From: Dehalococcoidia bacterium
GTDB lineage: Bacteria > Chloroflexota > Dehalococcoidia > Bin125
Direction of reading: 5' to 3'
Assembly (NCBI GenBank): GCA_965220315.1
Contig: CBDCPP010000002.1
Coordinates: 579,088 to 643,087, forward strand
DNA: 64,000 nucleotides
Shown here: piece by piece, positions 27,041 to 54,200 of the stretch
Numbering within the stretch: the stretch's first letter is position 1
Layout of the letters: each line of letters opens with the position of its first letter
The notes under the pieces: model-generated
What the model saw: only the letters and a program-made list of their open reading frames with translations
The model's database searches: none
Told to the model about the DNA's origin: nothing
Translations under genes and position numbers: made by a program

Positions 27041-27130
27041 GGAGGGGTGGCAGAGTGGATGATTGCGGCGGTCTTGAAAACCGCTAGGCGCCTCGGCGTC
27101 TCGGGGGTTCGAATCCCTCCCCCTCCGCCA
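27041..27130 (+). tRNA. tRNA-Ser (anticodon TGA), class II with long variable arm, encoded CCA
   Basis: A cloverleaf can be drawn by hand: acceptor GGAGGGG/CCCCTCC, U8, a 3-bp D stem, anticodon stem GCGGT/ACCGC with loop CTTGAAA (U33, anticodon UGA), an 18-nt variable arm, T arm GGGGG-TTCGAAT-CCCTC, discriminator G and CCA. Confidence 0.85.
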
Positions 27131-27636: not shown

Positions 27637-28275
27637 ATGATGAAGATGGTTGATGAACGAGAGATCGGGAATCGGGTCAAAGGCAGTGTCATCGGGCTGC
27701 TCAAAGGCACGGGAGAGGTCGCTGCAACCGCTGTGGGTGAAGTCGCCAACCTCACCCGAACGACAGTCAAGGAAACTGGCGAGACAGGCGGCGCAGCCGC
27801 CAACCTAGCGGTGGGAGCCGTCAAGGGAGCCATTGACGCCGTTGGCGACATCGGCGGCGAAGCGGCACAGACCGCGGCCACGACCCTCACCGCGACGGTC
27901 GACGCGGCGACGCAAGTCGGAAGCTCCGTCGGAAACGCCGCCAAGGGAGCGGTGATCGGCGCCGTGGAAGGCTCCTCCGAGGTCGGGGCGGAGTCGGTGG
28001 AGGCGATCGGCAAGACCAGCCGGGCGGCCGTTAGTGAAGCGGCGATGATCGGTGCTGACGTCACGACTGCGGCCGTTGGAGCCGTTGAGGGCGCTATTGA
28101 GGCCGCCAAGAAGACGGGGATCGGTGTGGAGGACGCCGCGGCGGCGGCGGCAACCGGCGCCATTGAGGGCGCGGGCGAGGTCAGCGAAGCGGCTGCCGTA
28201 CGAGTGCGGCGTTCTGTGGAAGGGGTGATTCAAGGAGTGCAGGTGGTCGCCAAGACGGCGAGTGGGAAGAGCTAA
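27637..28275 (+). CDS. Ala/Gly/Val-rich repeat protein (LEA-like / amphipathic 11-mer repeats), function unknown
   Basis: The 212-aa ORF contains many GAV(I/E)GA(V/I)(E/D)A-type repeats. It is the only ORF between tRNA copies B and C. The gene call rests on repeat periodicity alone. Confidence 0.45.
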   Translation: MMKMVDEREIGNRVKGSVIGLLKGTGEVAATAVGEVANLTRTTVKETGETGGAAANLAVGAVKGAIDAVGDIGGEAAQTAATTLTATVDAATQVGSSVGNAAKGAVIGAVEGSSEVGAESVEAIGKTSRAAVSEAAMIGADVTTAAVGAVEGAIEAAKKTGIGVEDAAAAAATGAIEGAGEVSEAAAVRVRRSVEGVIQGVQVVAKTASGKS

Positions 28276-28590: not shown

Positions 28591-28657
28591 TGCGGCGGTC
28601 TTGAAAACCGCTAGACGCCTGAGTGTCTCGGGGGTTCGAATCCTTCCCCCTCCGCCA
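28591..28657 (+). repeat. direct repeat: 3' portion of tRNA-Ser from the anticodon stem to CCA (att-like partial copy C)
   Basis: TGCGGCGGTCTTGAAAACCGCTAGACGCCTGAGTGTCTCGGGGGTTCGAATCCTTCCCCCTCCGCCA matches tRNA positions 26-90 with about 6 mismatches. The 5' half is replaced by unrelated sequence, although TATTGAAGGCA from the tRNA upstream region persists at about 28512. Confidence 0.7.
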
Positions 28658-35167: not shown

Positions 35168-36214
35168 CCATGCCCTGGTCGCAGACGCAGAGAGGGCCTG
35201 CGGCGACGACTCCAAACGTACGGTCAATGCGGAAGAGCCCGGCCCATGGTCCATGGTGGGCCATCGGATCTCTTAAGACCCTACAGTGTGTACACATTGA
35301 GTACTTAATAAGGAAAGGATGGGCCGGGATGGACCATGGGCCACCGAGACACTCCCGGTTCCGGCCGCGGCCACACGCCGCATCGATCGCGGCGGTCGCC
35401 GCGCCGGGAGAAGGGATGCGCCGCCGCGCGTTCGTCGGGAAGGCCCGCTAGCGACCCGGGCGATCCCGCCGCCCACGCCGCCGCGCAGGGAGCAGTGGCC
35501 GCGCTGCGCGCGACTGTCTCTTTCGCCCCCGTTCCCGCCGAGCACGCCGCTCGCTGAACCGCCACGGCGCTGACCTAAGCACGGCCGGGGAGCGCCGCAA
35601 CACCTGGAACGGGGGCAGGCGCGGCCTGGGGCGTGAGGCCCTCCATCCGCGGCCGCGATCGCCGCGCGCCACGCGATCCGCCCGCGCCGGCCGCCGCGCC
35701 TGCCCCCTGTCGGTTCAGCGTGGCAGGCCCAGCGCCGCATCAAGGGGCGAGCAGGCAGCCCGCTCAAAAATCGGCGCGAAGAACGCACGGTAGGCCTGCC
35801 CCCTGGACGCGGCGCATCTGGGAGGCGGCGGCGGTGGCCATGCCTCCTGCTATGGGTTTGCGCTCCATGTGCACCCTGCGCAGCCCGCTCCGCGACAACC
35901 CATCTCCGAACGCGACAGCCCCTCGCCCAGCGCAGGCGCAAGCATGTTCGGCTGCGCTGGAGGACCAGCGCTGCCGATGCTCGCCTGCACGTCCTGGTCA
36001 AGGGTGCGGCTACGCCCACGCCGGAGGACCGGCGCGCCCTTGACCAGGACGGGACGGAAACCTGCCTGCCTGGTTGCCCGATCGTATACCCCGGCCTCAA
36101 GAGTGAAGGCTACGCCCAGGCCGGAGGACCGGCCTGCTCTTGACCCCGGAGTCATGGGGACAAGCGACCAGGCCGGCGACGGGAGCCGGAGGGATAAGGG
36201 AAAGGGACCCAACC

Positions 36215-37351
36215 ATGACCGACCGCCAACACCACGAGGACGACTGCAGCGAATGCGGAGGCACCGGCATCGCACAAGAGGCCGCCATCCCAGTGCCCGG
36301 ACCCGATGGCTACTGCCAGCCCCGCCAGGGCACTGGCCAGACCAGGGAGGACCCAGTGACCACGACCGACGACACGCCAACCATCAACCTCCACCGCGAC
36401 TGCTGCCCCGACGCAGCCATCGAGAACGACCCACCCGATCCGGACACGCACCTGGCCTACGAGGTCGACCCGCCTGAGGTCCAAGCCACGGGAATCATCC
36501 TCAAGTTCGACACCGATGGGACCTACCAACGCATCGAGCAGACGGGCCCCCTTGGCCTCGAGCTGATGCAAAAGCTCGTCGACGGCTACATCGAGCGCGT
36601 CATCACCCCCAGCTTCGACCTTTGGGTGAACGAAGAGGGGCTCATGCGCGACGACTTCGAGCCTAACATCGGGGCCAGCTACCTACTCGGCAAGCACGGC
36701 GCCCCCAACACCATCATCCTCGGACCCGCCTTCATCGCCGCCAGCAACGACGATGGAGAGAGCGTGCCCGCACCCACCGAGGTGATCGACATCTGCCTCG
36801 CCAGCCTCCACCAACTCGGCTACACGCAGGGAACGGAGAGCGCTGGCTGCGACGAGTGCGGCGGACTCTGCGACAACGACCACCGGCCCATCGCAGGAGG
36901 GAGCGGTGCATCCCCCGAAGGCACGGCCACCGTCGCCATATCAGCCGAGGTCCTCATCGTCGTCCCGCTCGAGCGCGGCGAACGCGCTGCCCTCGCCCTC
37001 AACAACAACGCTGGCAGCGACGCCTGGTCCCGCGTCGTCGAGAACGCCTACACCCGTCTCTCCATACAGATCGACGGCGTCCACCAGCCCGCCGAAGACG
37101 TTGCCTGGGGCCAGCCCTTTGTTGTAGCAAGCCCGCCACCCATCGCCGGAGGCGCGGCCATCACACTCCCCTCCAACGTCACGATGGACCAGGTCCTGGC
37201 CCTGGTCGAGGCCGACGACAACCTGGGGCTCTGCACCCACTGCGGCGCCGAGGCCAGCGGCATCGAGCCGGACGCCAACGCCTACGCCTGCGAGGACTGC
37301 GGCCGCAGCGCCGTCACCGGCGCCGAAGGCCTGCTGCTGGCCCTGGTCTAG
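36215..37351 (+). CDS. DUF3846-like phage/plasmid protein with two Cys-rich zinc-ribbon ends; contains two copies of the PIAGG linker motif
   Basis: The internal ATG at 36215 follows AAGGGAAAGGGA. The protein has an LKFDTDGTYQRIEQTGPLGLELMQKLVDGYIERV ... DLWVNEEGL (DUF3846-like) core. The motifs HRPIAGGSGAS (36886) and PPIAGGAAI (37141) precede C-terminal modules. The DUF assignment is from memory of the family, not a search. Confidence 0.55.
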   Translation: MTDRQHHEDDCSECGGTGIAQEAAIPVPGPDGYCQPRQGTGQTREDPVTTTDDTPTINLHRDCCPDAAIENDPPDPDTHLAYEVDPPEVQATGIILKFDTDGTYQRIEQTGPLGLELMQKLVDGYIERVITPSFDLWVNEEGLMRDDFEPNIGASYLLGKHGAPNTIILGPAFIAASNDDGESVPAPTEVIDICLASLHQLGYTQGTESAGCDECGGLCDNDHRPIAGGSGASPEGTATVAISAEVLIVVPLERGERAALALNNNAGSDAWSRVVENAYTRLSIQIDGVHQPAEDVAWGQPFVVASPPPIAGGAAITLPSNVTMDQVLALVEADDNLGLCTHCGAEASGIEPDANAYACEDCGRSAVTGAEGLLLALV

Positions 37352-37598
37352 CCGTGCGCACCTGCGACCACTGCCAGGCAGTGATGCGGGGCGCGCGCCG
37401 CCGCTACGGCTGCGACTACTGCCGCGCTCAGCTCTGCAGTAAATGCTACGACGCCCACCGCTTCACCCCCAGCCATCGCCCGCGTCCCTGTCCGCAGGCG
37501 GCGCGGGCCCAGCCCGCGTAGCCCCTTCCATCCACCCAGCACGCACAGAACAGCCCCGGCGCCGGCCGGGGCTGTTGCGTTAAGCGAAGGACACTCCC

Positions 37599-40500
37599 AT
37601 GACCACGATCACACGACTCGACACCCCCTGGGGACCCGCGCAGACCATCACCGAGCTCGCGCCCGGTGTCCGCATCGTCACCACCGCCAGCCACGGCGGC
37701 CTCCAGATCGAGGAGCCGCAATGGCTGGAGCTGCCCGCCGCCGTGCGGCGCACGTTCACCCGGCTGCACCCCAAGGGCTGGGCCGAGGAGGACTGCGAGA
37801 TGGCGATCGCCCTGGTCCTGCTGGGCCTGGCCGAGCACCCCTACTTCGGCGGCCCCGACTCCAAGGTCCGCCGCGCGGCGATCGGCATCGCCAACTTCTT
37901 CGAGACCTACCACCCCTGCCGGGAGCCCCTCGCGGCCTTCAAGCCCATCGCCGGGGGCAGCGGCGCCGAGGCGTGCGCGCACCGGCACGTGCTCTCCCTC
38001 CGGTGTCCCGACTGCGGGCAGACCATGCACCGCACGATCGCCGAGGTCGTCCGCTGCCACCCCTGCCGGCAAGCCGATGGTCTCGGCCACGCCCGCGTGA
38101 CGCAGGTCGAGCGCACCGAGGAAGCCTGGGACGAGCAGCTCCGCCAGCAAGCCAGCGCGCCCGTCCTGGCGGTCGCCCGCGAGCACTACGCCTCCCCCGC
38201 CCAGACGCCCTATCACTGCGAGGAGCTGGCCGCGCGGGAGCAGGAGCTCTACCACTGCACGACCCGCGAGCTCGAGCAGATCTGCCTCGACCTGGACATC
38301 CCGATCCGGACGCCCGAGGGCTGGAGCATCCCCACCGAGCCCGCCTACGTCGCCCACAACGAACAGCGCATCCACCTCGCCCAGGCGAGGGAGCGCGCCT
38401 ACCTCGAGTACTACAAGACCACCGTCGGCGGCCCGCCGATCGCCGGAGGGAGCGGAGAGATCGACACCATGCGTATCACATTCACCCCCAGTTGCAGCTG
38501 CGGCGCGACATCGCCCGGCTTCGACCGCCAAGACGAGGCCCGGCTGTGGGCCCTCCACCACATCGAGGAGCGGCACCTGAACGACCCCGAGCCCGAGCCC
38601 TTGCACGAATACCAGATCCACGTCCGCGAGACCGTGATCATGGACCGCTGCTACGGAGTCCGCGCCGCCAACGAAGAGCAGGCCAAGGACAACAACCAAG
38701 CCGACTGGGAGTGGCTCAACGAATCCGAAGTCGACACCACCGCCACCCAAGTCACCGAAGTGCGGCACCTGAGCGGAGCCGGCTGCGCAGGGTGCACCGC
38801 CGAGCAGAAGCCCATAGCGGGAGGCAGCGGCGAAGAGCAACCGATAGTCCCATGCGTCGCCCCCACCGACAGCGACGACGAGACCGAGCTACTCCACGAG
38901 TTCACGGTCGACGCCAACGACACCATCATCAGCGACCGCGTCTACAGCGTCTTCGCCCACAGCGAGGACGACATTCGGCAAGAGCTCGGCGAGTGGGATT
39001 GCTCGAGCCAAGGCGACGAGACGCTCCTCTCCCGCGAGCTGACCAGCATCGACCATTACCCCCCAGGCTGCCGCGCCTGCCAGGAAGCGCAGATGCTGCA
39101 GCCCATCGGGGGCGGCGCCGTCCGCAACCCCAAGCTCAAGTGGACCGCGCGCGGCCGCGGCGGCAGCCGGGAGTTCCGCGCCCTGCCCTACGTCATCTTC
39201 CACCCCTATGACGAGTCCCGCATGGGCGCCGGCGGCGGGGGCGGCATCCCCGTCTCCGACCAGTGGCGGCTCCACGTCGAGGGCGAGCCCGTTCGCTACT
39301 CGCGCAAGGATGGCTGGAGCGGGAAGAGTGAGACCCTCGGCACCTTCACCATGCTAGCCGCGGCCAAGGCCCGGGCCCAGGCCCACGCCGACGCCCGCTC
39401 CATCGAGCACCAGCAGCTCAACGAACAGCTCGGCCTCAAGCCCATCGCGGGAGGGAGCAGCGAAGGGGACTCCCCCTTCGTCCAGTGCTGGCCCATCGCC
39501 GAGTACTTCGCTGCCCTCCCCGAGGAGGCATTGCGGCAGCAGATAGGAACCTACAGCCCCGGCAAGAACTTCAAGCCGTGCTGCGTCGGCGCCCACCTGG
39601 CGTTCTTCCTCGGGACGGAGCTCCTCACGCGCAATCTGCTCGCCCCCTACCACGACTTCCTCGATGGCGAGAAGGCCCTTGCTGAGCAGCTCAACCTCGA
39701 CCCGCACACCGTCAGCACCCTGCTCTACGCAGCCGGAGCCGACACCAACCCCTTCGGCTATCGCCAGTGGCCCGTGCCGCCGGCGCAGGTGTTCACCAAC
39801 CTCCTGACGATCGAGAAGATCCCGCGATCACACGAAGCGGGACCCATGCACTCCGCCGCCATCGATGCGTACAAGCAGAGCCAAGCGCTCAAACCGATCG
39901 CGGGCGGGAGTGGGGAAGAGGAACCCATCCCCGGCTGCGAATGGTGCGATCCCGATCCGGATCCGGATAGCCCGAATCCACCCGACGCCATCGCCTCCGG
40001 CGCACAGCGCCTCGAAGAAGCAAAGAACGCCCTCTCGGACGTCTTCCACGTCATGGACGAGCACGCCCTCGACAACAAGCGCGAACCATGGCTGCACCAG
40101 CTATGGGACGCCCGTCAAACCATCGACTGCATCCAAGAGAACGCACCGGGCTGGGAGGAGCCGACCATCAAGCCCATCGCGGGAGGGAGCGGCGAGGAGG
40201 AACCCCCGCGGCTCACCACCCGCGAGCGCAAGGAGCGCCGCCTCAAGCGACGCCTGGACTGGGCCGAGAGCCGCGAGCACAAAGCCGAGCAGACCCGCAA
40301 GGCGGCCGATGCCGCCGTCGCCGGGATCCCATTCGGTCAACCCATCCTCGTGGGACACCACAGCGAGAAGCGCCACCGCCGCGCCATCGACCGGCACGAC
40401 CGCAACTTCTTGAAGACGGGCGAGCACTTGCACATGGCGGACCGCCACCGCCGCCGGGCGGCCGGGATTCAGGAGCAGCTGAACCGCTCCATCTACTCGG

Positions 40501-40847
40501 ACGACGACGACGCGATCCCCGCCTTGCAGCAGCGCATCGCCGAGCTCGAGGCCCGGCGCACGCGCATGAAGGCCATCAACCAGTGGCTGACCAAGCACGG
40601 CGGGATCCCCCGGCGGCGGGTGCCGCGCGGCTCGGAGCGGGCCCTGTTCGAGAAGGCCGGCGAGGCGATCAAGCGCTGCCACGCCGAGCTGACGCTGACC
40701 CAGAAGGAGGGCCAAGAGATCGTCCAAGCGCTCCAGTTCAACGGCGTGCTCGGCTACCCCAGCTACGCCCTCTCCAACCTATCCGCCAACATCCGCCGCC
40801 AAGTCAAGCGGCTCGAGCGGCTGCAGAAGGAGGCCCCCGATGCCTAG
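37599..40847 (+). CDS. 1082-aa multi-module protein: seven unrelated small modules (zinc ribbons, DUF3560-like C-terminal module, etc.) joined by a recurring KPIAGGSGEE linker
   Basis: A GAAGGA site precedes the ATG at 37599. Linker instances lie at 37941, 38434, 38808, 39108 (degenerate), 39438, 39891 and 40170. The last module (about 210 aa, ...GQPILVGHHSEKRHRRAIDRHDRNFLKTGEHLHMADRHRRRAAG...) resembles DUF3560. Confidence 0.65.
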   Translation: MTTITRLDTPWGPAQTITELAPGVRIVTTASHGGLQIEEPQWLELPAAVRRTFTRLHPKGWAEEDCEMAIALVLLGLAEHPYFGGPDSKVRRAAIGIANFFETYHPCREPLAAFKPIAGGSGAEACAHRHVLSLRCPDCGQTMHRTIAEVVRCHPCRQADGLGHARVTQVERTEEAWDEQLRQQASAPVLAVAREHYASPAQTPYHCEELAAREQELYHCTTRELEQICLDLDIPIRTPEGWSIPTEPAYVAHNEQRIHLAQARERAYLEYYKTTVGGPPIAGGSGEIDTMRITFTPSCSCGATSPGFDRQDEARLWALHHIEERHLNDPEPEPLHEYQIHVRETVIMDRCYGVRAANEEQAKDNNQADWEWLNESEVDTTATQVTEVRHLSGAGCAGCTAEQKPIAGGSGEEQPIVPCVAPTDSDDETELLHEFTVDANDTIISDRVYSVFAHSEDDIRQELGEWDCSSQGDETLLSRELTSIDHYPPGCRACQEAQMLQPIGGGAVRNPKLKWTARGRGGSREFRALPYVIFHPYDESRMGAGGGGGIPVSDQWRLHVEGEPVRYSRKDGWSGKSETLGTFTMLAAAKARAQAHADARSIEHQQLNEQLGLKPIAGGSSEGDSPFVQCWPIAEYFAALPEEALRQQIGTYSPGKNFKPCCVGAHLAFFLGTELLTRNLLAPYHDFLDGEKALAEQLNLDPHTVSTLLYAAGADTNPFGYRQWPVPPAQVFTNLLTIEKIPRSHEAGPMHSAAIDAYKQSQALKPIAGGSGEEEPIPGCEWCDPDPDPDSPNPPDAIASGAQRLEEAKNALSDVFHVMDEHALDNKREPWLHQLWDARQTIDCIQENAPGWEEPTIKPIAGGSGEEEPPRLTTRERKERRLKRRLDWAESREHKAEQTRKAADAAVAGIPFGQPILVGHHSEKRHRRAIDRHDRNFLKTGEHLHMADRHRRRAAGIQEQLNRSIYSDDDDAIPALQQRIAELEARRTRMKAINQWLTKHGGIPRRRVPRGSERALFEKAGEAIKRCHAELTLTQKEGQEIVQALQFNGVLGYPSYALSNLSANIRRQVKRLERLQKEAPDA

Positions 40848-41256
40848 CACGATCGATTGGGCCGAGCGCTCCCCCAGCGGCGGCCGCTTCGGCCGTCTCA
40901 AGGACGGGCTCTCGATTGCCTGCGCCCTGCCCGCTTGCGCAAGCCAGTGGGGGACGGGCGAGATCGACCCCGAAGGGAAGCACCAGAAGATCGCCCTGCT
41001 GTGGCAGCAGCCGGACGGCTCCATCGTCCACTCCCGCTGCGCGCCAGAGGAGGAGAAGAGTCGCTACGCATTTCAGTTGGACGACGCAACCCCCGGCAAG
41101 GAACCGGAGTTCTCCAACCGCACGGGCAAGCTATGGACGGGCCTGCAGCACGGCAGCAGCGGCCCCTGGCTCTTCCACGGCGCACGCTACTTCCAAGGCC
41201 AGGCCCGCTACGACCCGATCCTCTGGCGACGCGCCGACCAACAGCAGCTCCTGTAG
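40840..41256 (+). CDS. hypothetical protein (138 aa)
   Basis: MPSTIDWAERSPSGGRFGRLKDGLSIACALPACASQWGTGEIDPEGKHQ... has balanced composition. Its start overlaps the end of the modular gene. Confidence 0.4.
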   Translation: MPSTIDWAERSPSGGRFGRLKDGLSIACALPACASQWGTGEIDPEGKHQKIALLWQQPDGSIVHSRCAPEEEKSRYAFQLDDATPGKEPEFSNRTGKLWTGLQHGSSGPWLFHGARYFQGQARYDPILWRRADQQQLL

Positions 41257-41650: not shown

Positions 41651-42178
41651 TGAACAACCGCAGCACCCACGCCACTACCAGGACCCGAGGACCGCCAAGC
41701 TCCCTCTCCCTCCCTCGATAAGAAACAAAGCCCAGCCCTACCCGCGCCCAGCCAACTTAAGACCGTGGGCCTCGCACCCCGGCCGCGATTCCCCGGGGAA
41801 ATCCCCCAGGGGCAGACGGTTTCGCGCGCGGAGGGCCCGCTCAGGGGGGCGGTTTCGGGCGATCGGGCCCCGATCACGCCGCCGGCGCCCGCCGCGGGCA
41901 TCCACAGCAGGGGCCTTGTGGGACACGCGATCGAGGGCGTGGGGGCCCGCCAGCCACCGCTGAGCGGCTCCTGGAGGGAAATTCGGGGGTTCGAGGCTGG
42001 AGGAGCGGCCGATATCCGCCTTTCCGACCGGCGGATGTGCGTGCGCCTCAGGCCCAGTGTCAAGTAGCTTTACACGTGATCCATGCCGCCGCGTGTGGCG
42101 AAATCGAACGGGCGCCCTGCGATCGAGGTTGCCAGCAGGAAAGCCTTCCGTACCATGTTTCCTGAAAACGGAGAGCCG

Positions 42179-45100
42179 ATGCCGGGTACCACTGCACAAG
42201 AAACCATCGCCGCGGCGCTCGACACCCTAGCCGAGAAAGGCCCGCACGCCACGGACGGCAAGTGGCTCGAAGACCTCACGGTGGCCGTCGCCCCGTACCT
42301 CAAAGAATGGGACGTCGCCTGCTGCTACGCCTGGTCCGACTGGCCCGAGCGGGAGACCCACTTTCCGGGCACCACGAACCAAGATCCCGGCATCGATGCC
42401 GTGGCGATCCGCCGCAGCGACGGCGCGCACATTGCCATCCAGTGCAAAGCCCGCCAGCTGGACGCGCACGGCCGGGGCGCTCCCATCGCCAAGGGGGAAA
42501 CGGCCGACTTCGCCAGCGCATCCGCCGGCTCGTTTTGGGCGGAGCGCTGGCTGGTCACCAACGGCGACAATCCCTTGAACGCAGGGGCTCGGCAGGTCCT
42601 CTCCATGGCGGACACGCCCATCAAGTGGATCAATCTCACCACTGATCTGGAACAGCAGCCCGCCGGCGGCCCCGCAGAGGAGTGCCCGCACTGTCAGCCG
42701 CACCCGGCCGGGGAGTCCCCACGCCAGACCAAATCCTGCATGCAGAACGAAGCCGTGACCCGCAGCGTCCGCCTGCTCAAGGAGCACGAGGACTCGGCGA
42801 GCGGCGGCTGCCCGGTCGGCCAAGCGCGGGGCAGGCTCATCCTGCCCTGCGGCACGGGCAAGACCCGCATCTCCCTGCGCATCATCGAGGCGCTCACGCC
42901 GCGCGGCGGCCTCTCCATCGTTCTCTGCCCCTCCATCGCCCTGGTCGCCCAGATCCGGCGCGAGTACCTGCAGCACACCACCAAGACCGTCCGCGCCCTC
43001 GCGGTCTGCTCCGACAAGACCGCCGGCTACGACCCCAGGAAGGAAGGCACCAGGAACACCGCCAAGGATCCCACCGTCGACAACAGCAACGTCAGCGCCG
43101 CCGAGGTCAAGGGCAAGGTCACCACGGACGCTGGCGAGATTGCCCGCTGGGTGCGCGAAGGCACGGACACCGAGGCGGTCAACGTCATCTTCGGCACCTA
43201 CCAGAGCGGCCTCAGGGTTTCGGAAGCGCTGTGCCAAACCGGAGCCACCGCCGCGGTGCTTGTCGCAGACGAAGCCCACAGGACGGCCGGCCTGCGCCGC
43301 AAAAGGAAGGCGAAGACTGGCCAGGCCTCGGAGGACGAGCAGCGGATCCGGGACTTCACCCTCTGCCACGACAACACGGCATTCCCGGCGACCTACCGGG
43401 TTTACCAGACTGCCACTCCCCGCATCTACACCGAGGCCGCTCCTCGCGGCGACAGCGACTGGCTGGTCCGCTCCATGGACGACGAGACCGTCTTCGGGGT
43501 GGATCTCTACCGCAAGAGCTACGTGGAAGCCGTGAGCAACGGTTGGCTGGCCGACTACCGCATCATCGCCTTGGGGGTCAACGACCCCGCCGCCTACGAG
43601 GCGGCCAACGCCCTGGCGCAGAAAACCGCCGGTGCCGGGAAACAGGCTCTGACAACGACCCACTTCCTGCGTGGTCTCGCCCTCGCCCTGGTCGTGGGCG
43701 GGGCCACCCAGGACGAGGAAAGCGGGGCGATCGCCATCAAGTCCTGCATCGCTTTCATGAACACCGTCGCTCGATCCGACAAAATGGCCGAGGCGCTGCA
43801 GAGCGCGCCAGTGCGCGACTGGCTCCGACAATGGCTCCACGACAACAGAAACGGCCAGCCGGCCGCCAGCTACACCCTGGAGCACCTAGACGCGACGAGC
43901 AACGTGAGCTCCCGGGAGAGCGCCAAGCTGCGGCTCGCCCAGGCCAGCGAAGAGAAGCCCCACGGCGTCATCAATGTGGGCATCTTCGGGGAGGGCACCG
44001 ACTCGCCTTCCCTCAGCGCCGTGGCTTTCCTCGAACCCAGAAAAAGCCCCATCGACGTGGTCCAGGCGGTGGGCCGGGCGATGCGCACCGCCCCCGGCAA
44101 GGAGTACGGCTACATCATCTGCCCCGTCCTCATCCCCCTGGCCGGCGACCCGGAGCAGTGGCTCAGCAGCAGCGGGCCGGATGACGGATGGCAGGAGCTC
44201 GGTCAGATCCTCCGCGCCCTGCGCGCCCACGACTCACGCATCGAGGAGGAGTTGGCGGAGCTGCTGCACCTATACGTTCCCACCCCGCCCAAAACACAAC
44301 GCACCCTCGTCGCCCTCGCCAGCGGAATGCAGAAGCGCATCCGGTACGTGGTGCACGACGGCGCGCCGGGCGAAGCGCAGGCCGCGGTGGAGCGGGTTCT
44401 GGACGGGGCAAGCACGATCGCAAAGGAGTTCCAACCCATCCGTGCACTCGCGGCGGCCGCCCCGGCGGCGCCCCAAGACAGTGCACCGTTGCAATATTCG
44501 CCGCCGGGTGAGCACGGTGGCCCGCTGGCGCCGGGGCACCAGATCGCGGAACGTCCCGAGCCCGTGCAGATCGTCACCGGGAAGCGGAACCAAGACGGGA
44601 GCGTCGAGCTGCGCCTGGCCGGCGTCAGCCGCGCCAAGCCCCGGGCGGACGGCAACCTGGGCCCTGTGGACATCGGCAAGACGAAGGCGAAAGCCAAAGC
44701 CATGATCAACAATGGCGCGGGCTCCCGCCTCCCCGCAGGGAAGCAAAAGGCGGCCCGCCGCACCCGGGAGGAGATCGCCGAGCAAACCGCCCTGCGGCTG
44801 CTCGATCTGAGCGGTCTGGGCGAGCACGGCAACGCGATCACGGTCAACCTGCTGTCGCGCTCCGGCCTCAGCGACAACCGGATCCTCCGGGATCTGAACC
44901 TCCTGGAAGCCGGCGTCAGCGAAGCGGCTCATCACCTCCGCAGTGACGGGCTCGCCACGGCGCTGGACGCGTACTTCGGGCTGGACAATCTCGAGCCGTC
45001 CGCCCGCACACAGCAGGCCGACGGCTGCACGATCGCGGCCCTGCTCATGATGAACGCCGCGATGCTGCACCAGCGCATCCACAGCGGCGGCTGGCTGTCG

Positions 45101-47440
45101 GGCATCAGCGACCTGGCGACCCTCAAGAACGACACCAACGTCGTCCAGCGCACGATCCGGGAATGGGGTCGCATCATGTGGCACGACTTCCGGCCCGTGT
45201 TGGAACCGGCGCTCAAGGCCATCTATGCCATGGAGGAGACCGGCAAGAAAGCCGGGCTGGAGCGGGCGCTGCACCATCTCGCGGCCGAAGCCGAGCGCAT
45301 CGCCGAGGTCTACGCCGACATGGGGGCGGATCACGCCGGCCCCCTCTTCAACAAGGTCATGGGCAACCAGGCCAGCGACGGCGCCTACTTCACCCGGCCC
45401 GTGGCCGCCTCGATCGCCGCCCGTCTCGCCCTGGACGCCTGTGGCGAGGCGGATTGGTCCGCCGCCCGAACCTGGCAGGACCACAAGATCGTGGACCTCG
45501 CCTGCGGCAGCGGCACCCTGCTCGCTGCCATGCTCACCGACATGAAACGGCGCGCCAGAGAGCGCGGGGCCAGCAAGAACCAGCTCGCCGATCTGCAGAA
45601 GCTGGCCGTCGAGGACACGATCACGGGGCTGGATATCAACCCGATCTCGCTCCAGCTGGCGGCAGCGCAGCTGACCGCAGGGAACCAAGAGATCCGCTAC
45701 CGCCGGATGGGGTTGCACTGCATGCCCTACGGCCCACGCCGGGATGATTCAACCCGGGCTTCCACCGGCACGCTGGAACTGTTGGAGCAGAAGGCCATCA
45801 TCCCGAGAGCGCATGAATTGGACCTCGCCGGCGACAGCGAAATCGCGGCGCGGGCCACCTGGGATCCCGCTGACGACGCCGAATTAGAGGATGCCGTTGC
45901 CGCCGCCATGGATGCCCGCATCGTCATCATGAACCCCCCCTTCACCAACCGGGCCAAGATGGGCGCGAAGTTTCCCAAGGCAACGCAGGACCAGATCCGC
46001 TCCCGGACCGACGCCCTCGAGGGACTGCTCGTGGGCGCGGACCCGAGCCTGACGGGATTCGCGGATAAAAACTCGCTCAGGCCGCTCTTTGTGGCCCTGG
46101 CGGATCGTGTGCAAACGCGGCCCGATGGGGTGGTGGCGATGATCAACCCGACCATCGCGCTGTCAGCCACGTCGGGGCTAGAGGAACGGCAGATCCTGGC
46201 CCAGCGGTTCCACATCCACACAGTGCTGACCTGCCACCAGCCCGGCAACATCAACATGAGCCAGAACACCAGCATCAACGAGAGCATCGTGGTGATGCGC
46301 CGCCACGAGGCCGGCCCCAAGCCTCCCACGCGCTTCGTCCACCTGGACAGGTTCCCAGCTGACGAGAGCCAGGTGGAGGATCTATACCGCCACCTTCAGT
46401 CATGTCCTCAAGGGCAGATGTCGAACGGCTGGGGAGAGGTCTCTGAGTGGCCCGCCGACCGTATGGAGGAGGGCGACTGGTCGCCGGCCATCTGGAGGTC
46501 GCCGGAACTGGCTGAAACGGCGCGGAAGTATGCAAATAGCCCGTACTTAACCGAAATAGGAATCCCGGACCGCACAGCTCACGCTTCAAGCCAAAGGCTA
46601 TACGAGAACTTCGAAAAATCACCAATGGATCACCCAGGAATGATACCCGTGATTGGGTCGAAAGGGGCCGGAGGGCAGAAAACCATCAGGGCTACACCAG
46701 ATGAGAACTGGATCCCGAGACAAGGACGAGAATCTCAAGCAGAGCACTATGGTAAATGGCACTCACACCTCCTCGTCACCGCCGGACAAGCAACAAACAC
46801 AGCACGCTTGACCGCAGTCGCCAGCGAAACCAAATACATTGGAGGAGGATGGTTCCCTGTTACAGGAACACAATTGGACGAATCGAAAGCCATTGCTGTC
46901 TTCCTGAACTCTACCGCCGGGCGACTGCAATTCATGCGAAGTCCCGGAAGAAAACTAGAATTCCCGAAGTACCAACCGGATGTGATCAACACCCTCCGCA
47001 TCCCCGAGGTCAGAGACGCCCGTATCCGCAAAATCCTCGCCGACTGCTGGGAGCGCACCAAGGAGATGGAAGTGCCGCAGTTTCGCGACGGGGAGTGCGA
47101 GGTTCGCGTCCTCTGGGACAATGCCGTCGCCGAGGCCATGAATTGGAACGTCGAAGACCTGGCCCACTCCCGCCAGATGCTTCACAACGAGCCGCACGTC
47201 CGCGGGCTCGGCTACAACGAGTATGGCGACGCGCTTGAGGACGGCGATGATACCGATCCACTCCCCGGCGTCGCGGTTGAAGTAGCGATCGCGCCAAAGC
47301 ACGATCTGGAACAGGCCTACTTCTGGACCCCCGAGTGGCAAGAGGCCGAAGCGAAAGCCGATCGGGACTTCGCCAACGAGGACTACTACGAAACGGGCGA
47401 CGTCGAGGACCTCATTCGCTGGCTGAACGATGGAGAATAA
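42179..47440 (+). CDS. single-polypeptide Type ISP-like restriction-modification enzyme: Mrr-family nuclease + SF2 helicase-like ATPase + gamma-class N6-adenine methyltransferase + C-terminal target recognition domain
   Basis: The N-terminus has DPGIDAVAIRRSDGAHIAIQCK (Mrr catalytic-domain motif). Helicase motifs follow: I (LPCGTGKTRISL), II (VLVADEAHRTAG) and VI (QAVGRAMR). The methyltransferase has motif I (VDLACGSGTLL) and motif IV (IMNPPFTNR). About 500 aa remain at the C-terminus. The probable start is the ATG at 42179 with a GGAGAG ribosome-binding site (ORF-track start 42083). Confidence 0.75.
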   Translation: MPGTTAQETIAAALDTLAEKGPHATDGKWLEDLTVAVAPYLKEWDVACCYAWSDWPERETHFPGTTNQDPGIDAVAIRRSDGAHIAIQCKARQLDAHGRGAPIAKGETADFASASAGSFWAERWLVTNGDNPLNAGARQVLSMADTPIKWINLTTDLEQQPAGGPAEECPHCQPHPAGESPRQTKSCMQNEAVTRSVRLLKEHEDSASGGCPVGQARGRLILPCGTGKTRISLRIIEALTPRGGLSIVLCPSIALVAQIRREYLQHTTKTVRALAVCSDKTAGYDPRKEGTRNTAKDPTVDNSNVSAAEVKGKVTTDAGEIARWVREGTDTEAVNVIFGTYQSGLRVSEALCQTGATAAVLVADEAHRTAGLRRKRKAKTGQASEDEQRIRDFTLCHDNTAFPATYRVYQTATPRIYTEAAPRGDSDWLVRSMDDETVFGVDLYRKSYVEAVSNGWLADYRIIALGVNDPAAYEAANALAQKTAGAGKQALTTTHFLRGLALALVVGGATQDEESGAIAIKSCIAFMNTVARSDKMAEALQSAPVRDWLRQWLHDNRNGQPAASYTLEHLDATSNVSSRESAKLRLAQASEEKPHGVINVGIFGEGTDSPSLSAVAFLEPRKSPIDVVQAVGRAMRTAPGKEYGYIICPVLIPLAGDPEQWLSSSGPDDGWQELGQILRALRAHDSRIEEELAELLHLYVPTPPKTQRTLVALASGMQKRIRYVVHDGAPGEAQAAVERVLDGASTIAKEFQPIRALAAAAPAAPQDSAPLQYSPPGEHGGPLAPGHQIAERPEPVQIVTGKRNQDGSVELRLAGVSRAKPRADGNLGPVDIGKTKAKAKAMINNGAGSRLPAGKQKAARRTREEIAEQTALRLLDLSGLGEHGNAITVNLLSRSGLSDNRILRDLNLLEAGVSEAAHHLRSDGLATALDAYFGLDNLEPSARTQQADGCTIAALLMMNAAMLHQRIHSGGWLSGISDLATLKNDTNVVQRTIREWGRIMWHDFRPVLEPALKAIYAMEETGKKAGLERALHHLAAEAERIAEVYADMGADHAGPLFNKVMGNQASDGAYFTRPVAASIAARLALDACGEADWSAARTWQDHKIVDLACGSGTLLAAMLTDMKRRARERGASKNQLADLQKLAVEDTITGLDINPISLQLAAAQLTAGNQEIRYRRMGLHCMPYGPRRDDSTRASTGTLELLEQKAIIPRAHELDLAGDSEIAARATWDPADDAELEDAVAAAMDARIVIMNPPFTNRAKMGAKFPKATQDQIRSRTDALEGLLVGADPSLTGFADKNSLRPLFVALADRVQTRPDGVVAMINPTIALSATSGLEERQILAQRFHIHTVLTCHQPGNINMSQNTSINESIVVMRRHEAGPKPPTRFVHLDRFPADESQVEDLYRHLQSCPQGQMSNGWGEVSEWPADRMEEGDWSPAIWRSPELAETARKYANSPYLTEIGIPDRTAHASSQRLYENFEKSPMDHPGMIPVIGSKGAGGQKTIRATPDENWIPRQGRESQAEHYGKWHSHLLVTAGQATNTARLTAVASETKYIGGGWFPVTGTQLDESKAIAVFLNSTAGRLQFMRSPGRKLEFPKYQPDVINTLRIPEVRDARIRKILADCWERTKEMEVPQFRDGECEVRVLWDNAVAEAMNWNVEDLAHSRQMLHNEPHVRGLGYNEYGDALEDGDDTDPLPGVAVEVAIAPKHDLEQAYFWTPEWQEAEAKADRDFANEDYYETGDVEDLIRWLNDGE

Positions 47441-48424: not shown

Positions 48425-49276
48425 ATGACTGAGCCAGGGCACGATCGCAGCCCACTCTACGAAGCCCACAACGCGCAACGGTATGAGCGGCAGACGCTAA
48501 TTCGCGCTTACCAAGACGCCTACTCCTGCCGGCTCGTTGTGCTATTGGGGTTCTTGTTCCCCAATAGCGTGACTCTTTTTGAAGACACGCTCTATGACGC
48601 CACCCCGCAGGAGGACTTGCACATCATGTTGCAGACCCCTGGCGGAGATGGAGAAACGGCACTTCGGCTTCTGCGCCAGGCGCAATCGCGGTGCAAGAGG
48701 CTGACTGTCATGATTCCCGATCAGGCCAAGAGCGCCGGAACGCTCTTCGTTCTTGGCGCGGACGAGATCTATATGGGGCCAACGAGTGATCTTGGCCCAA
48801 TCGACCCGCAATTCCGAATGTCTGACAACTCCGTCGTGCCAGCCCGAGCGATCATTGCGGCAGTCAGAGATGCAGAGGAACGGGTCCAGAAAAGCCCCGA
48901 TACGTATGCGCTTCACGCATCGCTGTTGAGCAACATCACATCCATGCAGGTACAGCAGGCAAAAGACGCGATCGCCCGCACTGGCGATCAGCTGAAAGAG
49001 GCCCTTGCCTGCGCCGGGGGAAGAGACGAAGGCCAACTTGAAAAGCTCGCAAGCGATCTGCAAGAGCCGCTAGTGGAATCTCCGCAGAGCCATGGAACCA
49101 CGATATCGGCCGCGGATGCCAAAAAGTTAGGCCTCCCCGTTCGGATAGCAGACCCACTGGAACCACAGTGGCAAGACGCTTGGCGGATGTGGGCGAAATA
49201 CGCGGCGGCCGGTGCTGGGTATGGCGGGATGTCGGTGTACGAGGGGCAAAAGGCCTCACACTTAATCCCTGCATAG
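48425..49276 (+). CDS. SDH-family (serine dehydrogenase proteinase, ClpP/crotonase fold) serine peptidase
   Basis: LHIMLQTPGGDGETALRLLRQAQSRCKRLTVMIPDQAKSAGTLFVLGADEIYMGPTSDLGPIDPQ matches the ClpP-like fold with its nucleophile Ser in the AKSAG context. Confidence 0.55.
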   Translation: MTEPGHDRSPLYEAHNAQRYERQTLIRAYQDAYSCRLVVLLGFLFPNSVTLFEDTLYDATPQEDLHIMLQTPGGDGETALRLLRQAQSRCKRLTVMIPDQAKSAGTLFVLGADEIYMGPTSDLGPIDPQFRMSDNSVVPARAIIAAVRDAEERVQKSPDTYALHASLLSNITSMQVQQAKDAIARTGDQLKEALACAGGRDEGQLEKLASDLQEPLVESPQSHGTTISAADAKKLGLPVRIADPLEPQWQDAWRMWAKYAAAGAGYGGMSVYEGQKASHLIPA

Positions 49277-51282: not shown

Positions 51283-54200
51283 TTAGCCGCCGACCGTCTG
51301 GGCACGCGGCGCCACCACCCAGAGCACGTCCCCGGGTGCGATGGCGAAGCCCCCGCGCCCCAGGGCGGGGAGGTAGGCACGGTCCCAGGCCCGGGTGGCG
51401 CGGGTGTACTGCCAGACGACCGTCACGTCCGTCCCGTCGAACAGATCGGCCGCCCGCGTGGCCGCCCCCGGCGGCACGACCACCAGGTCGCCGCCCGCCC
51501 GCAGATCCAGGGTGATGGGGTCGGCGACGGGCGCAGTTGGGGGCGGTGTCCCCGCCACGGGCAGCGTCTGGGCCACCGATGCCACGACCCAGAGCACGTC
51601 GCCGCCCGCGATGGGAAAGCCGCCGCGGCCCAAGGCGGGCAGGTAGGAGCGGTCCCAAGCCCGCGTGGCTCGGTTGTACTGCCAGGCGATCGTCACGTCC
51701 GTCCCGTCGAACAGATCGGCCGCCGTGGTGGCCGCCCCCACCGGCACGGGGACGAGGTCGCCGCCCGCGCGCAGATCGAGGGTGAGGCCGGGCGGCGCTG
51801 CGGCGACCGCCCCGTCGCCGAGCCGCACCCGGTAGGTCTTCGTGCGCTGGCCGTCGGCCGCGGTCACGGTGACGGTGATCGCGGCGAGCCCGGCCAGGGT
51901 GATCTGGTGGCCGTTCGTCTCGTCGCCGTCCGCGTCGGGCGGGGCGATCGCGATGGCCGTCCGGCGCTGCAGCGCCGCTGCCGTGACCGTAGTCTCCGCC
52001 ACGCCCTCGGCGATGACGCCCTCGTAGCCGGTCTGGCTCGGGTCGAACGCCCCGATGGCGATGCCGCTAAGGGTGAGCGCCGCCAGCCGGGCGTCGCCAG
52101 CGTCGGGCATGTTGTAGGTGTAGACGCGGTCGTCGCTGGCGTCCACCACGTACATCACGTCGCCGTCGGACCAGATGCCGCGGGGGCTGTTGTTGCTGGC
52201 GCTGCTGAGATGGGTGAAGTCCTCCTCGCGAACGCGCTCGAGTTCGTCGGCCTCGTCCTCTGCTCCCTGCTCGTCTGCCGGAACGGGCAGGCGGTAAGCA
52301 AAGAGGCGCCTGGGGCTGGCACCGGCGTCGGAGATCCAGACGGTCACCCGGTCCGACCAGATGCCCTGGGGGTCGCTGTTGCGGGCGGCGAGGGGGTAGG
52401 CGGCCAGTAGGGCGCCGCTCGCCAGGGCGTAGACGAAGACGCGGGTGGCACGATCGTCGAGCACCCAGATCAGGGTTGCGTCGGCCCAGAGGCCGCGGGG
52501 GTCGCCGTTGCGGGCGTCGAGCGCGATGTCGCGGTCCTCGAGCCGCTCGCCGGTGGCGAGGTCGTAGGCGAAGAGCTTGTCCTGGCCGCTGTCGGAAACC
52601 CAGATGGTCGTGCCGTCGGCCCAGATCCCGCGGGGGGCGCGGTTCTTCTCGTCGAGCGGGAACTCCCGCTCCTTGAGGCGGTCGCCGGTCTGCAGGGCGT
52701 AGGCGTAGACCCCGTCGCCGGCGCCGTCGGGGTTGTCGGCCACCCAGAGGGTCGTGCCGTCGGCCCAGGCGCCGGTGGGCGCGGCATTGCCGCCGTCGAG
52801 CGCGGCGAGGTCATGCTTCACGGTCCACTCGAAGTCGCGATCGCTGGGCGACGGGCCGTCGCCACCCCCGCCCCCGCCGCCGCCACCGCCACCCGTCGTC
52901 GGCGTCGCGGCAGTAGTGGGCGGGTAGGCGCGGAATATGGTCACGTGGTAATCCCGGGTGCTGTAGCCGTCCTTCGCCCTGACCTTCCAGTTGACGAAGT
53001 TACGGCCGGACTTCATCAGGGGTACTCGGATGCTGTGGGTGTGTGGGTCGACGTCCATGGTGTCCCCGAGCGTTTCGAATGTGGCGTCCGGGTCTTTCAG
53101 CGTGAAGGTGACGGTGACCTCCGTGACTGCATAGTCGACTTCCGCCTGGTAAGACGTGGCGCCCGGCTCCGTGAAGGCGGGGTCCAAGGTGCCGCTGCTC
53201 AGCGTCAGCGCGCTCAGCCCCGTTTCGCCCGGGAGCAGGCACGCGGTGTTGGCCCCGGTGAAGAAGCGCAGGCCGGCGTTGGTGAGCTTGGCGCGGAGGG
53301 CGGCCTCGGTCGGGTCCGTGGTGAAGGTGTTGCCCGAGATGTCGAGGAAGGTGAGGGACGTGGCGAACGGGTCGAACCGGGTCAGGTCCAGGGCGGTCAG
53401 GGCGTTGCAGGAGAGGTCGAGCTGAACCAGGCCGGTCAGCCCGTCGAAGATGTCCGCGGGCAGGGCCGTGATGTCGTTGTCGGTCAAGTAGAGAGAGGAA
53501 AAGCCGGCGCCCAGCGGGTCGAACAGGTCGGCCTCCAGCGTTGTGAGGTTGTTGTTCGACAGGAAGAGCCATGACAGGCCGTCCAGCCCCTCGAAGATGT
53601 CCTCGTGCAGGGACGTGAGGCCGTTGTCGTGCAGGGAGAGACCCGTCAGGCTGTCGAGCGGGTCGAAAATGTCCTCGTGCAGCGTCGTGAGGTCGTTGTT
53701 CCCCAGGATGAGCGTTTTCAGGCCGGTGAGTCCGTCGAAGATGTCCTCGTGCAGGGACGTGAGGCCGTTGTCGCTCAGTGGGAGATACGTCAGGCTGTCG
53801 TCCAACGGGTCGAACAGGTCGGTCTCCAGTGTGGTGAGGCTGTTCCGTTGCAGCCAGAGCTCCTTGAGGTTGACCAACCCGTCGAAGACGTCCTCCGGGA
53901 GCGTCGCGAGACTGTTGTCGTTCAGGGTGAGTCTCTCCAGGCCGGTGAGTCCGTCGAAGATGTCCGCGTCCAGGGTCGTGAGGCTGTTGCCGTACAGGTG
54001 GAGCTCCTTCAGGCTGTCGTCCAACGGGTCGAAGAGCCCGGCGGGCAGCGACGTGAGGCCGCTATCGAAGATCAAGAGCTCCTGGAGGTTGACCAACCCG
54101 TCGAAGACGCCGGCGGGGAGCGTCGTGAGGGTGCTGTTGCCGGTCAGCCCGAGCACAGTCAGGCCGGTAAGTCCGTCGAAGATGTCGGCGTCCAGGGTCG

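Follow-up and report, generated by a model that had tools for sequence, protein, structure and literature searches.

Polyvalent proteins of phages and conjugative elements are very long proteins built from 2-15 unrelated small domains that also occur alone, with variable, mosaic architectures and a context of anti-restriction and establishment genes (SSB, ArdC, methylases), and they have been proposed to be delivered with the DNA and processed into units (PMC5512222). However, no defined cut site is known for them. A comparable in-frame concatenation of independent proteins occurs in the viral polyproteins cut by papain-like or adenain-type cysteine proteases, whose sites carry a hydrophobic residue at P4 and Gly-Gly at P2-P1, as in adenovirus ((M/I/L)XGG|X), coronavirus PLpro (LXGG|) and African swine fever virus pS273R (GG|X). 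Similar residues precede the cut in double-glycine leader peptides, which are processed by C39 peptidase-ABC exporters. Short repeated linkers that are more conserved than expected are also known from tandem C2H2 zinc fingers, in which TGEKP joins homologous domains and takes part in their common DNA-binding function. Further, the N-terminal Prp cleavage motif (F|A) shared by ribosomal protein L27 and the scaffold and capsid proteins of staphylococcal phage 80alpha is a precedent for mobile-element proteins that carry a short conserved motif cut by a host protease.

Here we describe a mobile element of a Dehalococcoidia bacterium (Chloroflexota; GCA_965220315.1, contig CBDCPP010000002.1), in which a dozen small proteins that are separate genes elsewhere are strung into long polypeptides joined by one almost invariant 12-residue junction, L-x-P-I-A-G-G-S-G-E-E-E-P. 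As in the polyvalent proteins, many unrelated domains lie in one polypeptide, with eight segments in the longer ORF and up to 14 in relatives, whereas the characteristic polyvalent domain set (MPTase, ArdC-N, SNF2/helicase, methylases, LPD families) was not found inside these proteins. Pfam scans of the 13 junction proteins gave only DUF3846, DUF7007, DUF6197, DUF3560 and a weak DUF7848. The published description of polyvalent proteins contains no conserved junction, none of these domains and no Chloroflexota member, while here a single junction marks nearly every domain boundary. The suggestion in the preliminary description that no named system corresponds is too strong, as polyvalent proteins are the closest known kind. 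Compared with the eukaryotic viruses, which encode their own protease, no such protease fold was found here in cis or nearby, and cleavage remains an inference. The residues L(-7), I(-4), G(-2) and G(-1) relative to the putative cut match the double-glycine leader consensus, but such leaders are single, N-terminal and helical and occur on small exported peptides, whereas the present motif is internal, repeated, contains Pro at -5 and joins folded, cytoplasmic-type domains. In contrast to TGEKP, the modules joined here are unrelated, and the Prp motif differs in sequence, occurs as a single copy and is N-terminal only.

Two adjacent ORFs and their nine junctions

The window, i.e. the whole 64-kb stretch of DNA analysed (positions 579,088 to 643,087 of the contig), contains two adjacent plus-strand ORFs with nine in-frame PI[AG]GG junctions, and the initial observation of two proteins built from small modules joined by a recurring element is confirmed. 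The degenerate DNA pattern CCNATHGSNGGNGG has 11 matches in the window against 0.57 +/- 0.82 in 100 shuffles, and nine of the 11 are these sites. The Pro codons lie at 36887 and 37139 in the first ORF and at 37944, 38436, 38811, 39102, 39441, 39894 and 40173 in the second; the positions given earlier were those of the preceding codon and were off by a few bases in four cases. Two copies are degenerate (PPIAGGAAIT and QPIGGGAV), in line with the degeneracy noted earlier, and the codon differences between copies are as reported there.

ORF A (36215-37351, 378 aa from the ATG at 36215, with the frame open from a TTG at 36140) comprises a CxxCxGxG zinc-finger N-terminus with DUF3846 (4.7e-12; 46.4 bits against a gathering cut-off of 27.5), junction 1 (36884-36916, R-PIAGGSGASPE, score 26.8 with a position-specific scoring matrix, PSSM), module J, the degenerate junction 2 (37136-37168, P-PIAGGAAITL, PSSM 14.5) and the Cys4 module O. 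Relative P0013 (P numbers denote related proteins recovered in the searches) starts at the equivalent Met. A 55-aa Cys-rich ORF (37354-37521, +), which was not in the preliminary description, starts 2 nt after the stop of ORF A and is homologous to a junction-flanked module of P0010 (42% identity over 38 aa, Cys pattern kept), so that here the module is a free-standing gene. In most relatives, DUF3846 and DUF3560 are the two ends of one protein.

ORF B (37599-40847, +, 1082 aa) is cut by seven junctions into eight segments and not seven as first proposed, and two of the eight are composites that have lost an internal junction. Segment 1 (37599-37937, aa 1-113) is a DUF7007 module (3.7e-15; 56.9 bits against a cut-off of 27), which is junction-linked in P0013 and adds to the domains first proposed. 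Junction 3 (37941-37973, K-PIAGGSGAEAC) is followed by segment 2 (37959-38429, aa 121-277), a composite of a zinc ribbon, the tail of an E module and a K module, in which a junction and the Cys-rich part of E, present in P0011, were deleted. Junction 4 (38433-38465, P-PIAGGSGEIDT) leads into segment 3 (38451-38804, aa 285-402), a DUF7848-like part with an A-type core, and junction 5 (38808-38840, K-PIAGGSGEEQP) into segment 4 (38826-39095), module A, which is present in every family member. The degenerate junction 6 (39099-39131, Q-PIGGGAVRNP) separates it from segment 5 (39117-39434), module D, which always follows A; the A-D junction is degenerate in all relatives and is the one junction whose neighbours never vary. 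After junction 7 (39438-39470, K-PIAGGSSEGDS), segment 6 (39456-39887) is the universal module B, predicted to be helical, with an invariant CCxGxH. Junction 8 (39891-39923, K-PIAGGSGEEEP, PSSM 37.5) precedes segment 7 (39909-40166), the acidic module L, shared only with P0001. Junction 9 (40170-40202, K-PIAGGSGEEEP) precedes segment 8 (40188-40847), the DUF3560 module with the HHSEKRHRR motif (9.8e-29; 100.4 bits against a cut-off of 27.2), which is C-terminal in every full-length relative.

Distribution, modularity and conservation of the junction

An exhaustive search of 1.84 billion proteins with a 30-column junction profile returned only 13 proteins at E < 1e-3, one of them a false positive. 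The 12 others are modular proteins of integrated mobile elements, and their only taxonomic label is Chloroflexota. Whether the motif is a generic linker of the organism had been set as a test beforehand, and it is not, as no junction was found in the flanks of five homologous loci, nor in 528 kb around 80 ordinary DUF3560 genes. A DNA-pattern scan of GTDB genomes gave 66 hits, of which only the known Chloroflexota metagenome-assembled genome is real, while about 35 Streptomyces hits represent one conserved out-of-frame site. A word-index protein search with a 40-residue junction alignment returned nothing usable, a sequence search of the PDB with ORF B and P0003 gave no hit, and a literature search for the motif found nothing.

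Cutting nine proteins at 76 junctions gives 85 segments in about 22 module families with variable order and copy number, including the tandem duplicates A-A, G-G, E-E and B-B. DUF3846, DUF7007, DUF6197 and DUF3560 match nearly the full length of their profiles, which are families of small proteins. Free-standing DUF3560 genes start MTRRERLERK exactly where the module starts after the junction, and module B exists as a free-standing 159-aa phage gene (P0017) that also begins at the module start. All five junctions in the AlphaFold model fall in 10-residue blocks of mean pLDDT 26-33 without secondary structure and are thus predicted to be disordered, whereas modules B and DUF3560 reach pLDDT 85-94.

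The conservation resides in the peptide and not in the DNA. Ser is encoded by AGY in 36 copies and by TCN in nine, with one TGC intermediate, and Gly, Pro and Ala third positions vary like background. With junctions defined in one sequence only, pN/pS is 0.15-0.41 against 0.48-0.99 for the rest of the gene (2-5 times lower), while pS is equal or higher. The motif also occurs in a 53% GC element with different codons. P, I, G and G are invariant in the 57 strong copies, although these were selected by the pattern PI[AG]GG and are invariant by construction; about 80% of all junctions identified by the PSSM carry that exact core. Leu is found at -2 from Pro in 25 of 57 copies, and the conserved N-terminal leader of relatives ends in a junction-like PVAG/PFAG.

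The junctions are also the joints for in-frame module gain and loss. All four large indels between P0002 and P0003, two 82%-identical relatives, and three between P0005 and P0008 begin and end inside junctions.

A candidate processing site and alternative readings

The interpretation offered in the preliminary description is partly supported, in that the concatenation of independent modules and the selection on the peptide hold, as does the recombination half of the proposed hinge and recombination site, whereas protease processing remains the best inference but only an inference, and the Shine-Dalgarno reading is not supported. We tentatively view ORF A, the small ORF and ORF B as the polyvalent protein of an integrated mobile element about 22 kb long, a string of small, independently folding proteins that elsewhere are separate early or establishment genes. 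The analysis itself shows that the junction is disordered in the model, sits exactly at the ends of the free-standing homologues, is under stronger purifying selection on the peptide than the modules it joins, with no constraint on synonymous sites, and is the place where modules are inserted, deleted and duplicated in frame. It is inferred, in contrast, that the junction is kept because a site-specific endopeptidase from the host, a helper phage or a variable element gene recognises it in trans, most likely cutting after Gly-Gly (P4 Ile, P7 Leu, P1' Ser) and releasing the modules after synthesis or after transfer into a new cell. Because every junction encodes the same peptide in a GC3-biased genome, junctions share up to 23 identical bases, which in this view lets unequal recombination reshuffle the string as a by-product. 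The resulting L-x-P-I-A-G-G|S matches the (M/I/L)-X-G-G|X sites of adenain, the LXGG sites of papain-like viral proteases and the -7/-4/-2/-1 pattern of double-glycine leaders. However, nothing computational here can show cleavage, no protease conserved with the polyprotein was found, bacteria do not need polyproteins for co-expression, and some modules have lost their junction and remain fused, so cleavage at every joint is not essential.

A possible but less favoured alternative is an uncleaved standard hinge, i.e. a flexible, soluble spacer (Pro caps, GGSG, acidic tail) that lets unrelated modules fold and act independently on one chain, for example for co-delivery, and that persists because every newly recombined module brings it along, with nothing recognising it in trans. 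The predicted disorder, the resemblance of a Pro- and Gly-rich acidic peptide to engineered GGS linkers, the recombination at junctions, the lack of a conserved protease and the tolerance of fused modules agree with this reading. Yet passive linkers are normally the least conserved parts of proteins, whereas here the core is kept in about 80% of 76 junctions across proteins that are only 34-68% identical, with low pN/pS, free synonymous sites and Ser kept through both codon classes, and copying by recombination cannot explain this because the DNA of junctions within one gene is as diverged as the rest. It is unlikely that the junction is instead a repeated docking motif, a short linear motif bound by an oligomeric partner, such as the inside of a procapsid or portal, or a transfer machine, with the whole string loaded and delivered with the DNA. 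In IMG/VR, the pattern PIAGG[ST]GE[DE] hits six contigs, and in five of them (four independent) it lies at the N-terminus of a scaffolding protein, followed by an acidic run, in the gene order TerL-portal-MuF-scaffold-capsid and with no head protease between portal and capsid in the two loci scanned; the window element has terminase-like genes, but no capsid genes were seen. However, the number of viral hits is what chance gives (about 10 expected by our estimate from amino-acid frequencies), the scaffold hits are mutually homologous and count as one event, a scaffold relative lacks the motif, tblastn of scaffold N-termini found no cultured phage with it, and those phages are unrelated to this element. 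The scaffold family that carries PIAGGSGED in four viral contigs (DUF4355/Gp46) is the one concerned in Prp cleavage, and the link to the present junction is a lead and not a result.

Selection on the nucleotide sequence, whether as a Shine-Dalgarno-like GGAGG/GAGGAGG element causing pausing or internal initiation or as a DNA site for recombination, is very unlikely and largely refuted. GGA GGN encodes Gly-Gly in seven of nine window copies although GC3 is 0.9, junctions share up to 23 identical bases and indels map to junctions, but GGA at the first Gly is found in only 4/40 copies in relatives, equal to the 10% background, so the GGAGG bias is confined to this window. Further, synonymous divergence in junctions is as high as or higher than elsewhere, Ser uses non-interconvertible codon classes, and no ATG, GTG or TTG follows at initiation distance. 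A recent accident, in which one junction was copied with tandem module duplications in a single lineage and has no function, could be suggested by the duplicated modules and the very small family, but it is refuted by the joining of unrelated modules, by the sharing of the junction among proteins down to 34% identity and elements of 53-70% GC, and by the purifying selection.

At its most speculative, and doubtfully, a bacterial mobile element may use the polyprotein strategy of eukaryotic viruses, in which up to about 14 small anti-host or establishment proteins would be made, and perhaps delivered, as one chain and released by a still unidentified endopeptidase at a dedicated PIAGG|SGEE site. 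The enzyme may be a host enzyme hijacked by several phage groups, as the same motif on some scaffolding proteins hints, and the site would also serve as a universal in-frame recombination joint, making the gene a natural 'plug-and-play' cassette array at the protein level. Because the candidate site is sharply defined and present 8-14 times per protein, the processing hypothesis for polyvalent proteins becomes directly testable. The family also shows, with breakpoints resolved to a few residues, how a standard junction lets evolution add, drop and duplicate whole modules in frame, and the junctions delimit about 22 small domains of unknown function far more precisely than homology can. If a dedicated protease exists, its 8-residue site and the enzyme would be a new orthogonal tool.

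Neighbouring genes of the element

The element carries terminase-like genes, a Type IIG-like restriction-modification gene and a tRNA-Ser att-like repeat, with SSB, DprA-like or ArdC genes, and integrases, in related elements. Pfam, NCBIfam, PADLOC and PHROGs scans of the neighbours and of all 13 junction proteins found no peptidase module and no protease conserved across the loci, and no Peptidase_C39 hit was obtained in the window element or in ten related loci. The only protease gene inside the element encodes a ClpP-like SDH-type serine proteinase (48425-49276, +), a weak candidate for a processing enzyme because it is present in only two of six loci. It was seen in the window element and in the related loci L005/L006 only (L numbers denote related loci). 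Other loci carry an ArdC gene with the MPTase (metallopeptidase) domain of Pfam (L162) and an ArdC-N protein with an HExxH motif (L165), both as separate genes, or an M78 protease (L164), and none was seen in L001-L004. A clostripain gene (61384-63825) lies outside the element, is absent from the other loci and has the wrong specificity, as clostripain cleaves after Arg.

Two modules were considered as hidden proteases. Module B, with its invariant CCxGxH and Gln, gave a good model (pLDDT 88, pTM 0.84) that matches no protease fold, and a search of BFVD (predicted viral protein structures) returned no match with E < 0.001, so that at least one of the domains has no known fold match. DUF3560, as a C-terminal peptidase analogous to the MPTase, is modelled as long helices with no PDB match and no zincin motif, which leaves the idea unsupported but not excluded.

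Immediately downstream, a 138-aa protein (40840-41256, +), whose start overlaps the stop of ORF B, is conserved in five of six loci (138-150 aa), and its invariant C28, C33, H64 and C67 suggest a CCHC zinc-binding protein rather than a protease. A conserved 207-aa protein is a helix-turn-helix protein. Between the 55-aa ORF and ORF B, an 11-bp perfect G+C hairpin (37550-37575, +; -36.1 kcal/mol for 37520-37600, z = -4.6) is a possible terminator or attenuator.

The junction-bearing ORFs and their relatives

The window has about 65% G+C, and the region from 36 to 48 kb has its own base-skew signature. ORF B (37599-40847, + strand, 1082 aa; GC3 0.90) and ORF A (open from 36140, with a probable ATG start at 36215, to 37351) are the only credible genes on these coordinates. 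A six-frame scan found PI[AG]GG nine times in these two ORFs, always in frame, and only twice elsewhere in 64 kb, and the degenerate DNA pattern had 11 matches against 0.57 expected. The copies read [KRPQ]-P-I-A-G-G-S-G-E-E-E-P, with two degenerate versions, and they differ at synonymous sites exactly as the preliminary description had claimed, so its observation held. Pfam gives DUF3846 in ORF A, and DUF7007 (N-terminus) and DUF3560 (C-terminus) in ORF B. Immediately upstream of ORF A lie two 38-nt direct repeats (36008-36045 and 36108-36145; 89% identical, 100 nt apart, each ending in TTGACC), which are possible operator or promoter repeats.

A word-index search found seven relatives of 695-1720 aa, one of which is named 'Chloroflexi/Chloroflexota bacterium', and each carries 5-13 copies of the junction. 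In five of them DUF3846 is the N-terminal module and DUF3560 the C-terminal module of a single protein, and the two ORFs of the window therefore correspond to one ancestral gene. Between them lies a 55-aa Cys-rich ORF (37354-37521, +), which starts 2 nt after the stop of ORF A and resembles a junction-flanked module of the junction protein P0010. It is followed by a perfect 11-bp G+C hairpin (37550-37575; -36 kcal/mol, z -4.6) just before ORF B, and the two large ORFs may therefore be separate transcription or translation units. In another genome the string also appears split in two ORFs, P0013 and P0007, both on a contig of 1,527,706 bases. P0013 is DUF3846-DUF6197-DUF7007 and ends in a broken junction (AAQPIDPRT...), while P0007 starts with a junction-like LLGGGSIA, which suggests a frameshift inside a junction.

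A 30-column profile of the junction was run with HMMER against all 1.84 billion representative proteins and returned only 13 proteins at E < 1e-3, of which 12 are of this kind and one (P0009) is an Ig-repeat false positive. Each cluster holds one or two sequences. The junction is thus not a generic linker but a signature of a very small family. It is also absent from the 20-kb flanks of five homologous loci and from 528 kb around 80 ordinary DUF3560 genes from metagenomes. The DNA pattern for the junction additionally hits one site conserved across many Streptomyces genomes (about 35 loci, within L013-L075). In the matching frame, however, the translation is Arg-rich nonsense, so this is a conserved sequence read out of frame and is unrelated to the finding.

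Modules, structure and selection at the junction

A position matrix from 57 strong copies gives L(-2) x P I A G G S G E E E/P. Because these copies were picked with the pattern PI[AG]GG, P, I, G and G are invariant in them by construction; about 80% of the 76 junctions found by the matrix carry that exact core, and L occurs in 25 of the 57. Cutting nine proteins at their 76 junctions gives 85 segments of 41-267 aa, which fall into about 22 families. Family F (DUF3846) is always first and family C (DUF3560) always last, whereas A and B, both of unknown function, are present in every full-length protein, and D, also of unknown function, always follows A. Family G (DUF6197) is variable, and E and H-V, of unknown function, come and go. 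Tandem duplicates (A-A, G-G, E-E and B-B) occur. Several modules are whole free-standing proteins elsewhere. The DUF6197 module covers positions 5-108 of a 111-position profile, and free-standing DUF3560 genes start MTRRERLERK... where the module reads ...GGSGEEEPPRLTTRERKERR. Similarly, a 159-aa free-standing B homologue (54% identical) sits among small genes next to a terminase and portal in a phage-like contig, without any junction.

An AlphaFold model of ORF B residues 397-1082, built from a seven-sequence alignment, has a mean pLDDT of only 61, but its confidence pattern is clear. All five junctions fall in 10-residue blocks of mean pLDDT 26-33 with no secondary structure, whereas DUF3560 is modelled as a bundle of long helices at pLDDT 85-94.

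Codon tables were built from 49 junctions in six genes. Ser is AGC/AGT in 36 copies and TCC/TCG in nine, with one TGC (Cys), and the third positions of Pro, Ala and both Gly vary at least as much as in the rest of the genes. In this window alone the first Gly of the junction is GGA in 7 of 9 copies (36887-40186), giving GGAGG (GGA GGN), whereas relatives use GGA in 4 of 40, the 10% background frequency. This lineage-specific bias is unexplained and could reflect recent conversion among copies or local selection. A non-circular test, in which junctions were defined in one gene only and each was compared with its partner gene, gave a synonymous divergence of 0.31-0.54 in junction codons against 0.24-0.45 elsewhere, and pN/pS of 0.15-0.41 against 0.48-0.99. 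The motif also occurs, with other codons, in an element of 53% G+C. The constraint is therefore on the peptide and is stronger than on the domains, and the nucleotide-level readings, namely Shine-Dalgarno-like pausing, internal starts and a selected DNA site, fail.

Recombination at junctions and context of the element

The junction proteins P0002 and P0003 are 82% identical where they align and differ by four indels of 89, 120, 69 and 62 residues, every one of which begins and ends inside a junction. Three indels between P0005 and P0008 do the same. Within the window, junctions share up to 23 identical bases. The residues after GGS travel with the downstream module and those before PIAGG with the upstream one, and crossovers therefore fall in the core. 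Junction-to-junction recombination is thus the way modules are gained, lost and duplicated. Not all change goes this way, however, because comparison with P0011 shows that ORF B lost a junction plus half an E module through an 'ER' microhomology.

The host genes at 17.8-24.6 kb are 85-94% identical to those flanking the P0004 locus, but the element sits at another site. tRNA-Ser(TGA) (27041-27130) is followed by a 93%-identical 67-nt copy of its 3' part (28591-28657), and the two bracket a 1.5-kb insert encoding a 212-aa Ala/Gly/Val-rich repetitive protein (27637-28275). The polyprotein element starts right after the second copy, and no third copy was found up to 51.5 kb. The element runs from about 28.7 to about 51 kb and carries a conserved HTH protein, TerL-like and TerS-like genes, ORF A, the small ORF and ORF B. 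The start of a conserved CCHC-type 138-aa gene (40840-41256, +) overlaps the stop codon of ORF B; it is conserved downstream of the polyprotein in 5 of 6 loci, with invariant C28, C33, H64 and C67, several Trp and a C-terminal QQxLL, and has no family match. Further downstream is a 1785-aa fusion of Mrr-like nuclease, ResIII/helicase and N6-methylase (42083-47440, +; PADLOC Type IIG RM, 4e-91) with about 500 unannotated C-terminal residues, and a 30%-identical counterpart with ISP-type domains is found in the related locus L001. A ClpP-like SDH-type serine proteinase (48425-49276, +; PF01972, 4e-12; NF047768) sits in a lower-GC patch at the right end of the element, where it escaped a gene filter based on GC3. 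Its homologue occupies the same relative place in L005/L006 but not in L001-L004.

Related loci carry SSB, DprA-like genes, RM systems and a serine or tyrosine integrase. Two of them, L162 and L165, which are elements carrying the shorter junction proteins P0012 and P0014, also encode separate ArdC-type proteins, that is, ArdC-N with Pfam's MPTase domain in L162 and ArdC-N with an HExxH motif in L165; L165 in addition has a 555-aa DUF6197 protein with a degenerate junction, AVIAGGSG (14454-15386 in L162; 6436-8061 and 4302-5969 in L165). No capsid genes were seen, and relatives are in chromosomal contigs of up to 2.3 Mb. Outside the element, a 2952-aa surface-type protein (51283-60141, -) has 12 PKD/Big_9 repeats, cadherin-like domains and 11 matches to the LRR_8 leucine-rich-repeat profile, and is followed by a clostripain-family (C11) peptidase (61384-63825, -). 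Long antisense ORFs with GC3 of about 0.9 overlap the giant gene.

Possible mechanisms and comparison with polyvalent proteins

The system works like a polyvalent protein and, if cut, would work like a viral polyprotein. By domain content, however, it is not a member of the described polyvalent set (PMC5512222), and neither that paper nor a full-text literature search for the motif mentions such a junction. What is already known is thus the general kind of protein, and what is new is this family with its conserved junction. We consider the modularity, the selection at the peptide level and the role of junctions as recombination joints to be robustly shown by the present analysis, while cleavage remains an inference from sequence. 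The interpretation in the preliminary description is supported in part.

The junction is predicted to be exposed and disordered, is more conserved than the domains it joins and is independent of what flanks it. In this view, it would have to be recognised by something in trans, for which the simplest candidate is a site-specific endopeptidase. The sequence L-x-P-I-A-G-G|S has the P4-hydrophobic, P2/P1 Gly-Gly signature of adenain sites, papain-like viral polyprotein sites and double-glycine leader sites. Polyvalent proteins have been proposed to need exactly such processing (PMC5512222). Further hints are that the one junction with constant neighbours (A-D) has decayed, and that the conserved N-terminal leader of relatives ends in a junction-like PVAG. 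However, no protease travels with the gene. The SDH-type enzyme is in two of six loci, ArdC-type genes are in two others and M78 is in one, and no module looks like a peptidase, so that a host or helper enzyme would have to be invoked.

We therefore hold cleavage only tentatively, as the most likely of the alternatives but short of an even chance, while a purely structural hinge is less likely though still possible, and a repeated docking motif is doubtful. The docking idea rests on one curious lead, in that five of six hits to PIAGG[ST]GE[DE] in IMG/VR lie at the N-terminus of scaffolding proteins. The hit count is nevertheless at chance level, the hits are one homologous group and a relative lacks the motif. 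The scaffolding proteins (Phage_scaffold/DUF4355) are encoded on uncultivated phage contigs (L008, 8732-8757; L010, 4685-4710, identical to L007; L011, 2671-2696; L012, 853-878) and carry [Y/W/L]-PIAGGSGED near the N-terminus, which could be a shared host-protease or docking motif, or coincidence. In each, the motif is followed by a long acidic run, and in L010 and L011, the loci scanned with Pfam, the gene order is TerL-portal-(MuF)-scaffold-capsid with no head protease between them.
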